64,000 bases of DNA from an uncultured Chloroflexia bacterium (GTDB lineage Bacteria; Chloroflexota; Anaerolineae; Anaerolineales; E44-bin32). This document shows, one piece after another, positions 43,983 through 51,365 of this stretch (its first letter is position 1; every line of letters begins with the position of its first letter). The stretch spans positions 1,056,427 through 1,120,426 of the forward strand of contig CAWDZQ010000003.1 in assembly GCA_963807065.1 (NCBI GenBank). The letters run 5' to 3'. Made by a program: the position numbers and the translations under genes. A model generated the notes under the pieces. That model worked only from the letters and a program-made list of their open reading frames with translations. It was not told the DNA's origin and did no database searches.

Positions 43983-45989
43983 ATGATGCACAAGGCACGC
44001 CCACTGGGCGTTCGACAACGAGCAGGGGGTTCACGGGCGCGGATTCTCCGCAGCTGCCTGGCGCTCGGCGTTATCCTTCTCTCCGCCGGCTTGATTCTGA
44101 CCGGCACCGGTGAAGGCGCATGGTCGACCCAGGCGGCGATGGTCGCCAACCTTCGGGGCACGGTCGTGGATGCGGCCAGCGGTGCCCCCGTGGCCGGCGC
44201 CCACATCTCCACCGCCAGCATCGGCGTTTCCACCACGTCGGACACCAATGGCCGGTTTGCCATCTCAAACATCCCTGTCTCCAAGCTCGTCACGACCACC
44301 ACCTTCACCATTTCCACCTTGGGCTACGGTGACTGGACTCTTCACGGCGCACGGCTGCTCGCCGGCGACACGCTTATCTTGAAAGCCGAACTGAAGCCGT
44401 CACCGGTCACCATACAGATTCCCGACCCGCAGGTTCTGGAGGCAAATCGCGCTGCTCTTGGGCCCGAAATCGCCAGCCCGCTCGACCTGTCCCCGCCTGC
44501 CGAGGACCAGACCAACGCGCCGCTCCCGGCGACCATCCGGGTGCGCGTCACCGGCTACGCCTACTGTGATCCGGGCCGGCCCTACACGGTGGAAACGCTC
44601 GACTTCAAGGACTACGCCAAGCACGTCTTGCCGGCTGAGTGGCCAAACTATTGGATCGGCGAGTCGCTGCGCGCCGGCGCTATGGCGGTCAAGATGTACG
44701 CCTGGTCATACATCGCCGCCGGCGGCAAGTGGCCGGACGCCGATGTCTACGACAGCACCTGCGATCAGGTTTACCTCCCCGCCGTCGAATACCAAAGCAC
44801 CAACGAGGCGGTGGACTTCACTTGGAATTGGCGCATGACGTGGGCATCGACGCAAACCCTGGTGCGGGCCTTTTACAGGGCCCAGGCCTCCCAGTGCCCA
44901 TCGGAATTGGTGGGTGCCTGCATGGGTCAGGTCGAGTCCAACACTCTCGCAGGGAACCGCTACACGTGGGACGAAATCCTGGCCTTTTTCTATACCAACA
45001 ACGGAGGAATTGTCCTCACACCGGTGTGGGATCCCCCCGGCGGCTACTCGCTGCGCTTTGAGGGCAACGGATACGGCAATCTCGACCGGGTGAGAATCAA
45101 ACTCGACAACCCTGCCCGCCCGATCGATGTTGGCGGAGATTTCACCATTGAGTGGTGGATGAAAGCCACCCCGGGCGAGAACGGTACGACCGTTTGCAGC
45201 GCCGGCGACGGCGCCTGGCTGGGCGGCAATACCTTCTTCGATAGGGACATTAACGGACCCGGAGATTATGGCAAGTACGGCATTTCGCTGATGAACGGGC
45301 GTATCGCGTTCGGTGTGAACAACGGGTCAACCGGTGTTACTCTGTGCGGATCGTCCAACGTGGCCAACGGCAGCTGGCACCACCTCGTCGTGCAACACCG
45401 GGCGAGCGACGGTCAGTTGCAGATCTACGTTGACGGTGCGCTCGATAACCAGGCCGCCGGCCCGACCGGAGACCTCAGCTACCGGGACAATCGAACACCG
45501 GCGGTTTCGCGCGATCCCTATCTGGTGGTCGGCGCCGAGAAGTTCGACACCGATAGCAATCTGTATCCCTCTTTCCGCGGTTGGATCACGGAGATCAGGA
45601 TATCGACCGGTCTGCGCTACGCTGGCGCCTACCCAACGCCCAGCAGCCGCTTCTCGACCGACGGCTCAACCGTGGGCCTGTACCACTTCGGCCAGGGCTA
45701 TGGCGATCCGATCCACGACTCGTCTGGCGCTTCTGGGGGTCCCAGCGACGGCCAGCGCGAGTATGGCGGTTCGGTCAACGGCCCAGAGTGGACCTACGAC
45801 AGTCCCTGGTATGTGCCGCCTCCCACGCCGACCCCCACGCTCCCTTCGCCGGGAATTCACAAACTCTTCATCCCCTTGGTTATCAGCGATCAACCCTCGC
45901 CGAGCTCAGGCGGCGCAAGTTCGATCCAATGGCAGGGCACGCCAACCCCGGGAGCGCCATCTACCCCAACTCCCGGTGGGACGCCTTGA
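43983..45989 (+). CDS. secreted multidomain protein: carboxypeptidase-regulatory-like domain, SpoIID/LytB domain and LamG-like domain
   Basis: 668-aa ORF with an N-terminal signal/anchor. NLRGTVVDAASGAPVAGAHIST...TDTNGRFAISNIP is CarboxypepD_reg-like. VRVTGYAYC...YTVETLDFKDYAKHVLPAEWPNYW..ESLRAGAMAVKMYAWSY...YDSTCDQVY is SpoIID-like. LRFEGNGYGNLDRVRI...GGDFTIEWWMKATPGEN...WHHLVVQ...LQIYVDG is LamG-like. Confidence 0.8.
   Translation: MMHKARPLGVRQRAGGSRARILRSCLALGVILLSAGLILTGTGEGAWSTQAAMVANLRGTVVDAASGAPVAGAHISTASIGVSTTSDTNGRFAISNIPVSKLVTTTTFTISTLGYGDWTLHGARLLAGDTLILKAELKPSPVTIQIPDPQVLEANRAALGPEIASPLDLSPPAEDQTNAPLPATIRVRVTGYAYCDPGRPYTVETLDFKDYAKHVLPAEWPNYWIGESLRAGAMAVKMYAWSYIAAGGKWPDADVYDSTCDQVYLPAVEYQSTNEAVDFTWNWRMTWASTQTLVRAFYRAQASQCPSELVGACMGQVESNTLAGNRYTWDEILAFFYTNNGGIVLTPVWDPPGGYSLRFEGNGYGNLDRVRIKLDNPARPIDVGGDFTIEWWMKATPGENGTTVCSAGDGAWLGGNTFFDRDINGPGDYGKYGISLMNGRIAFGVNNGSTGVTLCGSSNVANGSWHHLVVQHRASDGQLQIYVDGALDNQAAGPTGDLSYRDNRTPAVSRDPYLVVGAEKFDTDSNLYPSFRGWITEIRISTGLRYAGAYPTPSSRFSTDGSTVGLYHFGQGYGDPIHDSSGASGGPSDGQREYGGSVNGPEWTYDSPWYVPPPTPTPTLPSPGIHKLFIPLVISDQPSPSSGGASSIQWQGTPTPGAPSTPTPGGTP
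45138..45167 (+). repeat. near-identical 30-nt segment shared with 47853-47882 (paralogous LamG modules)
   Basis: gatttcaccattgagtggtggatgaaagcc versus gatttcaccatcgagtggtggatgaaagcc (29/30 identical). Both encode DFTIEWWMKA. Confidence 0.85.
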
Positions 45990-46187
45990 GGCATCTCGGC
46001 TGTTCTGTGATCTCATCCGGGGGCGAGGACACCTTGGTCAAACCGCCCTCCCCCGGCAAACCCGCCGGTCGTTTGATCGTGACGTCAGGCAGAACCGTAT
46101 TCGTATTGGATCCATCGGGCGATATCCGGGGAGACTGCGGCCAGATTGTAGCCCGGCTGGCATGAATATGGCACCAAGCAGACCGTC

Positions 46188-49622: not shown

Positions 49623-49898
49623 CCCAGACGGGCGTCTCTGCCCCCTCAGGTGACCATCAACGGTTTGCCCTCCTGCATCAACCAACAAAGAGCGGCATGA
49701 GCTCTGCCGCTTGCCATTTACAGAATTCCGACCCTTTTGCAGCTGACAGACGCCTGCGCCATCTGCTCCCTGCTGGGGCCAACCGGAATGGCCGCAGGCG
49801 TGTACCTTGGTCATGGCTGGAGGGATTGAAGCCGGTTTGGCGGGAATCGGGTGGAAAGCCGGTTGATTCCGATCCTGTGCCGGCGCAGAGATGGAGGT

Positions 49899-51365
49899 CT
49901 AGGGACCTTGGATGATCAAGGGCAGGTAGAAGGTATGAGGGGGCACAGTACTCACGAGCGTTAGAGCCGAATCCACCTGGACCCGAGGTTTGCTGACGCC
50001 CGGGTTGCCATTTCGTTCATCGGTAATGATCACCCCGGAAGACGTCAGCGCCGAAAGCACGTCGCTGACGCTTGCATCGGGTGCCTTCGATTTAACCAGC
50101 GCCCAGACCCCGGCGACATGCGGTGCCGCCATGGACGTACCGTTCCAGGTCTGGAATCCTCCCCCCGGAACCGACGATGTGATTGTCGAACCTGGCGCAA
50201 ACAGCGACATCAAGGCTGAGACGTTGGAATAGGAGGCGACCCTGTCTGCCCCTCCGGATGTGTCCGAATCGGTGGATGCTCCCACGCTGATGGCGGTCGA
50301 GATGCACGCCGGCAAGGCGAGGGCATTGGTGAAGGCGCTGTTCCCGGCGGCGATCACCGTGGCGATTCCGGCACTGCGCAAGTTGTCGATCGCCAGTTTG
50401 CGCGGATCGTCATCACAGGCACTTGTGTAACCCCCGCTGCCCAAACTCATGTTGGCGGCGGCGATGTTGTAGCTGCTGCGCAGGCTGTACACCCAATCCA
50501 AGCCGCTTATCTGATCGGACGGGTAGCTGAGAGCACAGGGGGCGAGCAATCCATATCCACTGCAAGTGGCCTCGTCAAATTGGGAGAAGATCTGGACGGC
50601 AATCAAATCGGCGTCCCTGGCTACGCCCGAGAAGGTCGTCCCCTTTCCGGCAGCGATGCCGGCCACGTGAGTGCCATGGTCACAACCTTCCGTAGTGATC
50701 GGGCAGTTGACCCCAGCACCAGGGCCAATTTGTTCGGGCAGGCCATTCGGGCAGACTGTATAGTCGGTTGAACCCCCGCCCGAGAAACATGCCTCGGCAA
50801 CAACTTTCCCGCTCAAGAAGGAATGAGAACTATCGACACCGGTGTCAAGAATGGCGACGGCCCAACCTGTTCCCGTGTAGCCGGCGGCCCATGCGCTGTC
50901 GGCGCCGATCAGGGGAACGCTCGACGCCAGAGTTGGCGGTTCAAGCTCATCAGGCTGAACGCTCTCGACCTCCGGGCTGTCCTGGAGATCCTGGAGCTGT
51001 TCGGGTGTGACCTGCATCGCCATGAGCGGCAGGTTGGCGTATTTCCTGGCTGTGAGCTGCCCACGTTGCGCCAGACGGTCGATCACCGCCCGTTGTGCAT
51101 GGGCGATTCGCTCACGCTGCTCCGCCGCTACCGCAGGATCGCCAGCAGCACTCGAAGAGAATCCGACTCGCAGACGGACGATGACCCTGACCTGGCCGTC
51201 CAGCCTGGCCCGATCGACCAGGGCGTCCATCGGCGTCCCATCCCGCCCGAACGCTGTGCCCTGCCGTGCTGACGCCGCCGTCGCGCTCATTCCGGTGAGC
51301 GCGACCAAGATTGTGGCCAAGAGGATCGTCAGCCCTACTCTTCGCAGCGTATACGAAACTTTCAC
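49899..51365 (-). CDS. secreted subtilisin-family (S8) serine peptidase with N-terminal propeptide
   Basis: 488-aa ORF with a signal peptide and the catalytic triad contexts AILDTGVD, CDHGTHVAGIAAG and NGTSMAAPHVAG. Confidence 0.92.
   Translation of the reverse strand: MKVSYTLRRVGLTILLATILVALTGMSATAASARQGTAFGRDGTPMDALVDRARLDGQVRVIVRLRVGFSSSAAGDPAVAAEQRERIAHAQRAVIDRLAQRGQLTARKYANLPLMAMQVTPEQLQDLQDSPEVESVQPDELEPPTLASSVPLIGADSAWAAGYTGTGWAVAILDTGVDSSHSFLSGKVVAEACFSGGGSTDYTVCPNGLPEQIGPGAGVNCPITTEGCDHGTHVAGIAAGKGTTFSGVARDADLIAVQIFSQFDEATCSGYGLLAPCALSYPSDQISGLDWVYSLRSSYNIAAANMSLGSGGYTSACDDDPRKLAIDNLRSAGIATVIAAGNSAFTNALALPACISTAISVGASTDSDTSGGADRVASYSNVSALMSLFAPGSTITSSVPGGGFQTWNGTSMAAPHVAGVWALVKSKAPDASVSDVLSALTSSGVIITDERNGNPGVSKPRVQVDSALTLVSTVPPHTFYLPLIIQGP

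Follow-up and report, generated by a model that had tools for sequence, protein, structure and literature searches.

Three exported proteins encoded within 7.4 kb of a 64,000-nt stretch of DNA (the window, to the whole of which all positions given here refer) carry a short motif at or near their C-termini, and the resemblance of these tails suggests that they are divergent copies of the YLP-box, a putative sorting motif. The proteins are cell-wall hydrolases and a protease of a Chloroflexota organism, namely a SpoIID-LamG protein (P1), an M23-LamG protein (P2) and an S8 subtilase (P3). The named MetK neighbours, at about 78-80% identity, all belong to Anaerolineales or Chloroflexota, which places the window in a Chloroflexota genome related to Anaerolineales. 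The YLP-box is conserved, strongly biased towards the C-terminus and largely limited to Chloroflexota, and the proteins that carry it, together with its position, suggest that it probably acts as a sorting or retention tag for exported proteins.

A preliminary description of the window did not recognise the motif as one of the named C-terminal sorting domains, but it does have a name. Scanning tagged open reading frames (ORFs) against NCBIfam recovered two models, NF050076 ('sort_motif_YLP', 11 positions) and NF053834 ('ultrashort_CTERM', 10 positions), both described as 'YLP-box putative sorting motif-containing protein'. A literature search found no paper describing the YLP-box motif. The window motif is a rediscovery of a catalogued, uncharacterised motif, to which it adds three divergent members. 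Canonical tags scored 9–14.5 bits with NF050076, below its curated cut-off of 15 bits, and two were above the 10-bit cut-off of NF053834 (11.2 and 12.6 bits). As the window shows, variants as divergent as ...FYLPLIIQGP and ...LYFPMVINQP escape the present NCBIfam models, which matters for annotation.

The C-terminal motif of P1, P2 and P3

The motif [HY][KT][LF][FY]xP[LM][VI]I had been noted on three secreted enzymes, and all three sequences were confirmed; a six-frame translation of the 64 kb contained three matches, in P1, P2 and P3 only (Table 1). The C-terminal region of P1 reads ...GIHKLFIPLVISDQP, followed by 30 more residues, with the Pro/Thr-rich (PT) linker PPPTPTPTLPSPG directly upstream of the box, whereas P2 and P3 end in ...TPYKLYFPMVINQP-stop (48573-48611) and ...PPHTFYLPLIIQGP-stop (49899-49937, minus strand), respectively. 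Pfam gave the same SpoIID-LamG, M23-LamG and S8 domain calls as had been made from the sequence; P1 also has a CarboxypepD_reg domain. The tail reported downstream of the P1 motif does exist and is rich in Pro, Ser, Thr and Gly, but it extends for 30 aa past SDQP, and not for 33. The N-terminus of P1 (MMHKARPLGVRQRAGGSRARILRSCLALGVILLSAGLILTG) was scored as signal-peptide-like and that of P3 (MKVSYTLRRVGLTILLATILVALTGMSATAASA) as a signal peptide, both by a heuristic; P2 has a hydrophobic segment near its N-terminus (LHGLILGAALAGLALLG), which is signal-like by eye only, as the heuristic made no call.

The catalytic domains of the three carriers (SpoIID, M23 and S8) had been described as unrelated. 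The LamG modules of P1 and P2 (residues 519-781 of P2), however, are paralogous, with 48% identity over 266 aa (BLASTP, E=4e-68), and the shared module stops approximately 20 aa upstream of the motif; the window therefore holds about two independent instances of the motif, not three. When the three tail regions were aligned, their nucleotide sequences resembled each other only in the codons of the motif, which is therefore not a DNA repeat.

The tails were compared with the YLP-box using an independent hidden Markov model (HMM) of the tag, with 12 positions and made from 24 tags, none of which came from the window or from the genome scan described below; ORF C-termini from non-Chloroflexota and viral loci (n = 1,772) served as control. 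P3 scored 14.2 bits, P2 9.3 bits and P1 7.6 bits, with P3 and P2 outscoring all 1,772 control C-termini, of which the best reached 8.3 bits (and looks like a genuine tag) and the runner-up 6.1 bits. The window tails share with the YLP-box of NF050076 and NF053834 a core of the [YF]-L-P type followed by aliphatic residues, located a few residues from the C-terminus of signal-peptide proteins of Chloroflexota. The core of P3 (FYLPLII) is an exact match to [YF]-L-P-x-[IVL]-[IVL], and those of P2 (LYFPMVI) and P1 (LFIPLVI) have kept the aromatic residue, the Pro and the aliphatic residues. Three residues separate the core from the stop codon in P2 and P3, compared with 34 in P1, which is outside the limit of about 12 residues used for terminal copies; the layout of P1, a box followed by a PT-rich tail and the stop, recurs in four other loci (L098, L110, L169 and L135, tails of 60-64 aa).

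Several features speak against assigning the window tails to the YLP-box. The P1 box scored below the best control C-terminus, the Leu before the Pro is replaced by Phe in P2 and by Ile in P1, and the trailing Lys is absent from all three proteins, which have Gln, Asn or Ser instead. None of the three matched either NCBIfam model (whole proteins at E<=1, tails at E<=10), a search in which the HMMER filters may drop weak matches. Further differences are the Thr in P3 in place of the leading Lys, which is present in P1 and P2, and the distance of the P1 box from the end of the protein (30-34 aa). A Lys before and a Lys or Arg after the box are found in at least 41 of 43 canonical tags, a figure partly imposed by the scan pattern, and two close homologues of P3 (P0011 and P0023) likewise have no trailing basic residue, ending in D/N-N-H/P. 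The non-basic trailing residue looks like a lineage-specific variant.

Table 1. Coordinates of P1, P2 and P3 and of their modules in the window
Feature	Position	Strand	Basis
P1, exported 668-aa protein: CarboxypepD_reg, SpoIID, LamG, YLP-like box, P/S/T/G tail	43983..45989	+	ORF; Pfam PF13620, PF08486, PF13385
P1 LamG module, paralogue of that of P2	45045..45785	+	BLASTP, P1 residues 355-601
P1 YLP-like box HKLFIPLVISDQP, internal, 30 aa ahead of stop	45858..45896	+	regex match; motif proper 45858-45884
P1 30-aa P/S/T/G-rich tail downstream of box	45897..45986	+	sequence
P2, 807 aa: M23 peptidase, LamG, terminal YLP-like box	46188..48611	+	ORF; Pfam PF01551, PF13385
P2 LamG module	47742..48530	+	Pfam, BLASTP, AlphaFold
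P2 YLP-like box YKLYFPMVINQP, then stop codon	48573..48608	+	regex match
P3, exported 488-aa S8 subtilase, terminal YLP box	49899..51365	-	ORF; Pfam PF00082, E=1e-34
P3 YLP box HTFYLPLIIQGP, then stop codon	49902..49937	-	regex match

Distribution and cargo of the YLP-box

We searched one genome per species (185,579 species) with a back-translated K-Φ-[FY]-L-P-L-[IV]-Φ-K motif (Φ, hydrophobic residue) in which the Leu codons were fixed (pattern AARNTNTWYCTGCCNCTGRTNNTNAAR). This gave 104 matches, 66 in Chloroflexota and 38 in other phyla. Of the Chloroflexota matches, 50 were in frame and at most 12 aa from the stop codon (46 in long ORFs, four in ORFs cut by the contig end), 14 were internal in a long ORF and two were out of frame or in a short ORF, whereas the matches in other phyla consisted of 15 internal and 23 out of frame or in short ORFs, with none in frame near a stop codon (50/66 versus 0/38, Fisher p=1e-15). 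The Chloroflexota records included Anaerolineae, Thermoflexia, Herpetosiphonaceae, Chloroflexia, Ktedonobacter and Promineifilaceae. From their sequence context, the internal matches in other phyla were taken as ordinary cytoplasmic proteins, such as MetH, an AddA-like helicase and an SDR protein. With a looser pattern on viral contigs as a null set, one of 87 matches was terminal in a long ORF. A contig classed as viral (IMGVR_UViG_3300048672_001686, L002:4960-6211) contained a 417-aa ORF ending in ...SSIFLPLMVKR-stop; either the tagged protein belongs to a phage or prophage with a host among the Chloroflexota, or the contig is misclassified.

The ~430 kb of sequence flanking the Chloroflexota matches contained approximately 12 extra tags that had not been selected by the pattern, for example RLYLPLVLRD and IHVYLPLVLRNAQP, compared with none in the control flanks, and from these Chloroflexota flanks tag carriers can be roughly estimated at ~3% of genes. 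The tags have the consensus K-Φ-[YF]-L-P-L-[VI]-Φ-[KR], and in most cases 0-8 residues separate it from the stop codon. Downstream of the invariant Pro there are 4-12 residues (mostly 4-7), and past the trailing Lys these are predominantly G, S, N, P, R, K, Q and Y. The Leu and Pro are invariant and the Tyr/Phe is fixed among canonical tags. Orthologous BNR/Ycf48-like proteins from three metagenome-assembled genomes (L109, L130 and L168) had near-identical ends, TP-x-x-KLYLPLILKKTP-stop, after long PT linkers, and the tag and the residues after it are therefore conserved across species. A Cys was often located 1-5 residues upstream of the box, as in PPCxxGC-LYLPQIIK, TPAC-KLYLPLILK and PPVC-KVFLPLVVK, both in LamG homologues (P0156, P0157 and P0186) and in other tagged loci (L109, L168, L135, L099, L172 and L179). 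The sole convincing YLP-box outside Chloroflexota was in a protein of the Patescibacteria (candidate division WWE3, MEUZ01000001.1, L121:~4900-5100), where it has an N-terminal placement: a signal peptide is followed by KVYLPLILKNYPLPP and then by ~480 residues.

The 43 tagged ORFs that we extracted matched 78 Pfam families, including DUF11, BNR/sortilin, Big_1/5/9, RCC1, beta-helix, FG-GAP, PKD, LTD, PA and CarboxypepD_reg. These are families typical of surface or extracellular proteins, and the tag is independent of the domain family of its cargo. It is also associated with signal peptides: a crude heuristic called signal-peptide-like N-termini in 22 of 30 complete tagged ORFs, whereas among the untagged ORFs of these loci the count was 68 of 260 (p=6e-7). 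Enrichment of the motif at the C-termini of signal-peptide proteins had been suggested as a test of the tag idea, and the idea survived this test when it was run on related genomes, not on the proteome of this organism. The proposal of a portable sorting, anchoring or recognition tag thus gained support from the C-terminal bias, the diversity of the cargo and the signal peptides, as well as from positional equivalence with other sorting modules, as described below.

Position of the box and its possible mechanism

Homologues of the S8 core and of the LamG module placed the YLP-box at a site used by other sorting modules. Of the 120 top-ranking S8 homologues, eight terminate in x-[FYW]-[LV]-P-[LMI]-[IV]-x, 1-3 residues ahead of the stop, and in three the box comes straight after the S8 domain and precedes a PT linker and another domain; in P0026 the order is S8, VYLPLVVK, linker and LamG. 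The homologues P0011 and P0023, with 69-74% identity, have retained T-I-F-L-P-L-I-I-[DN]-N-[HP]-stop, although the linker upstream of the box has diverged and contains insertions and deletions. Around nine LamG homologues end in [FY]-L-P-x-[IVL]-[IVL]-[KRNQ]; in P0159, LYLPLVLR lies close to the N-terminus. The YLP-tailed S8 and LamG homologues include P0011, P0023, P0032, P0044, P0047, P0050, P0124, P0128, P0132, P0153, P0181 and P0202. At the same position, homologues from other lineages have established sorting or anchoring modules: other S8 homologues have dockerin (PF00404), SLH (PF00395), PPC, FG-GAP or tails with a transmembrane (TM) segment plus basic residues, and other LamG homologues have the C-terminal domain (CTD) of the type IX secretion system (T9SS; PF18962), FlgD-Ig, dockerin-like repeats, RTX (PF00353) or TM-plus-Arg tails. 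Since one domain family thus bears varied, lineage-specific sorting modules at one site, the YLP tail at that site probably has a sorting role too.

In AlphaFold models the tag is predicted to be a disordered appendage. The S8 and LamG folds were confident, with tails at a mean predicted local distance difference test (pLDDT) score of ~47-60: in P3 the mean was 60 for residues 471-480 and 48 for residues 481-488, with no secondary structure past a helix ending at residue 471, and in the P2 LamG module pLDDT was >90 over most of the fold and ~50 on average for the last ~22 residues, again with no secondary structure. The possibility that the tail is a structural part of the preceding fold was rejected, as the P3 and P2 tails are left outside both folds. 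Approximately a quarter of the Chloroflexota copies are not terminal, and are located internally, between PT linkers, before PT-rich tails or further domains, or just after a signal peptide (L184, L135 and L124, as in the WWE3 locus L121). One protein (L104:2311-4743) has two boxes, an internal KFYLPLILK after a PT linker and a C-terminal AIYLPLVVRGLERK ~256 aa later. In another (L136:4511-5964), a linker, the TM-like segment AWLWAGFLLPVAASL and the Arg-rich RQMRRPRGQ come after the box KIYLPLVVK, so that the tail downstream of the box looks like a classical tripartite one. A TM helix or basic cluster after the box was found neither in P1-P3 nor in the great majority of tags: the box is followed by QGP in P3, by NQP in P2, and in P1 by the P/S/T/G-rich tail, which is not hydrophobic.

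The lack of a TM helix and basic cluster, the non-terminal copies and the disordered tails together favour a linear peptide recognised by an envelope component. We infer a sorting or retention role through non-covalent recognition in trans, for which no cleavage would be needed, and tentatively suggest as the likeliest mechanism, though at somewhat less than an even chance, that the YLP-box docks, as a flexibly tethered linear peptide, onto a component of the envelope. The ultrashort, portable tag would be appended to Sec-exported proteins, and after export it would dangle on a flexible, often Pro/Thr-rich linker; binding by the envelope component in trans would then sort the cargo to, or retain it at, the cell surface, be it the wall, a sheath or an atypical outer layer. 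The tag would thus correspond, in minimal form, to dockerin or SLH modules, which occupy the same position on S8 homologues, are attached by linkers and are recognised in trans without cleavage, but are folded domains with known partners, whereas the YLP-box is a linear peptide without a known partner. Neither dockerin (PF00404) nor SLH (PF00395) was detected by Pfam in P1-P3.

Some points count against docking of a phylum-specific tag. The distribution was obtained with a single narrow, codon-restricted pattern, with taxonomy from record titles only; the terminal bias of 77% would also suit a mechanism that trims the C-terminus or depends on a free one close by; and a Pfam census of 140 genes flanking the tags in Chloroflexota loci gave no recurrent candidate for a receptor or enzyme.

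A more far-reaching version of the docking model, which we consider doubtful, is that the YLP-box is the visible half of a new surface-display system. In this system, a position-independent docking strand of ~10 residues (a 'mini-dockerin' or donor strand) would plug 2-5% of the proteome into an acceptor in the Chloroflexota envelope, without a TM helix or cleavage, and might share roots with donor-strand pili of the candidate phyla radiation (CPR); the alternative would be processing of the CPBP type. The CPR 'Pam' pilus, found in bacteria without a typical outer membrane, is assembled by donor-strand exchange, in which the incomplete Ig-like domain of one secreted subunit receives a short strand from another (bioRxiv 10.64898/2026.03.03.709456). 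We observed a small secreted family (~75 aa mature) with repeated S-x-N-Y-x-L motifs and G-F-W-x-G immediately ahead of the YLP-box, in the form SP-...S-x-N-Y-x-L-x-x-G-F-W-x-G-...-K-x-Y-L-P-L-x-L-K (L149:869-1177, L160:1668-2039, L175, L182 and the C-terminus of L099:4017-5963). This family weakly matched positions 4-78 of the NCBIfam model CPR_pilus_PamT, which represents the tip protein of the pilus (E 5e-6 to 0.05, 13-26 bits compared with a cut-off of 240); the match begins at residues 5-10 of the proteins, and therefore probably includes the signal peptide. The likeness to the Pam pilus consists of this weak match to the start of PamT and of the YLP-box in a WWE3 (CPR) protein, but the PamT score is far below the cut-off and no acceptor domain was identified, making the link speculation.

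Among the rival explanations, the one that survives best is a processing signal, although we regard it as unlikely. A peptidase or transpeptidase of a sortase-, exosortase- or myxosortase-like type would recognise the box, remove the downstream residues or domain, and link the protein covalently to the wall or to lipid; a CPBP/Rce1-like intramembrane protease might be the enzyme, by analogy with the trimming of the '-aaX' of CaaX tails, which is performed by CPBP/Rce1-family enzymes. The strong terminal bias, which leaves only 0-8 residues downstream of the box, the invariant L-P core, which is also the dipeptide of LPXTG, and the presence of PEP-CTERM- or MYXO-CTERM-like TM-plus-Arg tails at the same position in LamG homologues are all consistent with processing, as are the TM-like segment and Arg-rich tail after the L136 box, and the L184 box protein that overlaps the first of six tandem CPBP genes. 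Myxosortase is itself an enzyme of the CPBP family (PMC11980579). However, in the great majority of tags, including those of the window, there is neither a TM helix nor a basic cluster that could keep the substrate membrane-bound, a box just after a signal peptide (L184, L135 and L121) makes no sense as a C-terminal site of cleavage and attachment, and there is no invariant Cys, Thr or Gly as nucleophile or acceptor position. CPBP genes were adjacent in only two of the 66 loci (L184 and one other) and were absent from the window, and the three Rce1-like matches in the 140-gene census all came from L184.

Like LPXTG (sortase), PEP-CTERM, PGF-CTERM and MYXO-CTERM (exosortase, archaeosortase, myxosortase), the YLP-box is a short C-terminal signature on many unrelated secreted proteins of one lineage. 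Sortase- and exosortase-type signals are tripartite, with a motif, a TM helix and a basic cluster. Downstream of the YLP-box there are just 0-8 polar residues; the box is also found at mature N-termini and has no known cognate enzyme, and without TM helix and basic cluster, it is therefore not a tripartite signal of the sortase or exosortase type. The preliminary description compared the motif, in logic, with LPXTG and PEP-CTERM-type tags; the YLP-box does not share their architecture, as the TM helix and basic tail are missing, and its placement is not strictly C-terminal. The tripartite layout is also described in work on myxosortase.

A second-step export signal, which would take proteins exported by Sec into or through the atypical outer layer of some Chloroflexota, is distinctly improbable. 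LamG homologues from other phyla do carry T9SS CTD (P0167 and P0210) or RTX signals of type I secretion (P0162, P0175 and P0182) at this position, and cryo-electron tomography showed an outer-membrane-like layer in some Chloroflexales, without genes for lipopolysaccharide or Bam (PMC7332563). Yet those signals are folded domains or long repeats, and ten residues are far fewer than in any known second-step signal; moreover, N-proximal and internal copies of the box exist, the tag is frequent in lineages of unexamined envelope type, and no machinery for such export is known. The outer-membrane machinery needed by T9SS and RTX is reported to be lacking in Chloroflexota (PMC7332563). The T9SS sorting domain (PF18962/TIGR04183) gave no Pfam or NCBIfam match in P1-P3, in which there are ~20 residues past the last folded domain.

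It is highly improbable that the Lys-flanked Φ-Y-L-P-L-V-Φ is a hydrophobic patch that sticks to a membrane interface, a hydrophobic sheath or other copies of itself without a specific partner. Seven consecutive hydrophobic residues between Lys or Arg, occurring at either end of a protein or in linkers, fit such a patch, but the invariant Leu and Pro and the fixed Tyr/Phe represent a tighter conservation than hydrophobicity needs, the window variants have kept the core without the trailing Lys, and partitioning, judged roughly from what is generally known of interfacial hydrophobicity scales, would be near neutral with both Lys residues taken into account. A trivial resemblance, by chance, shared ancestry with the domains, a DNA repeat or a strand of the preceding fold, is practically negligible: the P1 and P2 tails are probably paralogous, following a shared LamG module, and look-alike strings occur by chance in cytoplasmic proteins of other phyla, but these points are outweighed by the HMM scores of P3 and P2, the 78 unrelated Pfam families, the absence of a nucleotide repeat, the disordered tails and the retention of the box in S8 homologues with a diverged linker. 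A covalent link to peptidoglycan via a C-terminal Lys, as known for Lpp, was rejected, as the Lys is usually not terminal and is absent after the box in P1-P3.

Chloroflexota are abundant in soils, sediments and wastewater sludge. To our knowledge, all characterised C-terminal sorting signals depend on a membrane-spanning segment or a folded domain, and the YLP-box has neither. We consider the motif to be of moderate interest, as its architecture is distinct from every characterised sorting signal. Its carriers include proteases, wall hydrolases and large adhesin-like proteins, and the partner, once found, would show how Chloroflexota build or decorate their surface, and might yield a very small surface-display tag. 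Cryo-electron tomography shows the Chloroflexota envelope to be unusual, and its architecture is debated (PMC7332563), which leaves room for a lineage-specific system.

Candidate processing genes and genomic neighbourhood

The window had been described as having no visible sortase- or exosortase-like gene, and indeed no sortase TLxTC, exosortase or CPBP signature was found in it. Elsewhere, in a Candidatus Promineifilaceae contig (JBGTCV010000109.1, L184:497-7996, minus strand), one protein ends in ...HSIYLPLVTR-stop, and the next gene encodes a secreted choice_anch_J protein of 248 aa, in which a YLP-box comes directly after the signal peptide. The stop codon of the latter gene overlaps the start of the first of six tandem genes for CPBP/Rce1-like intramembrane proteases. 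The array could point to a processing enzyme, or it could be of the Abi type and have no connection with the tag.

The neighbourhood of P1-P3 consists of housekeeping genes (ten neighbours), a multihaem cytochrome c and an SNF2-Mrr fusion. The cytochrome is located between P2 and P3 (48957-49622, + strand), and is a 221-aa protein with an N-terminal membrane anchor and several CXXCH motifs, which matches Cytochrom_c3_2, Cytochrome_C7 and NapC/NirT-like models. The fusion protein (680 aa, 51744-53786, - strand) combines an SNF2-family helicase with a C-terminal Mrr-type restriction endonuclease domain, and may have a role in defence or DNA repair.

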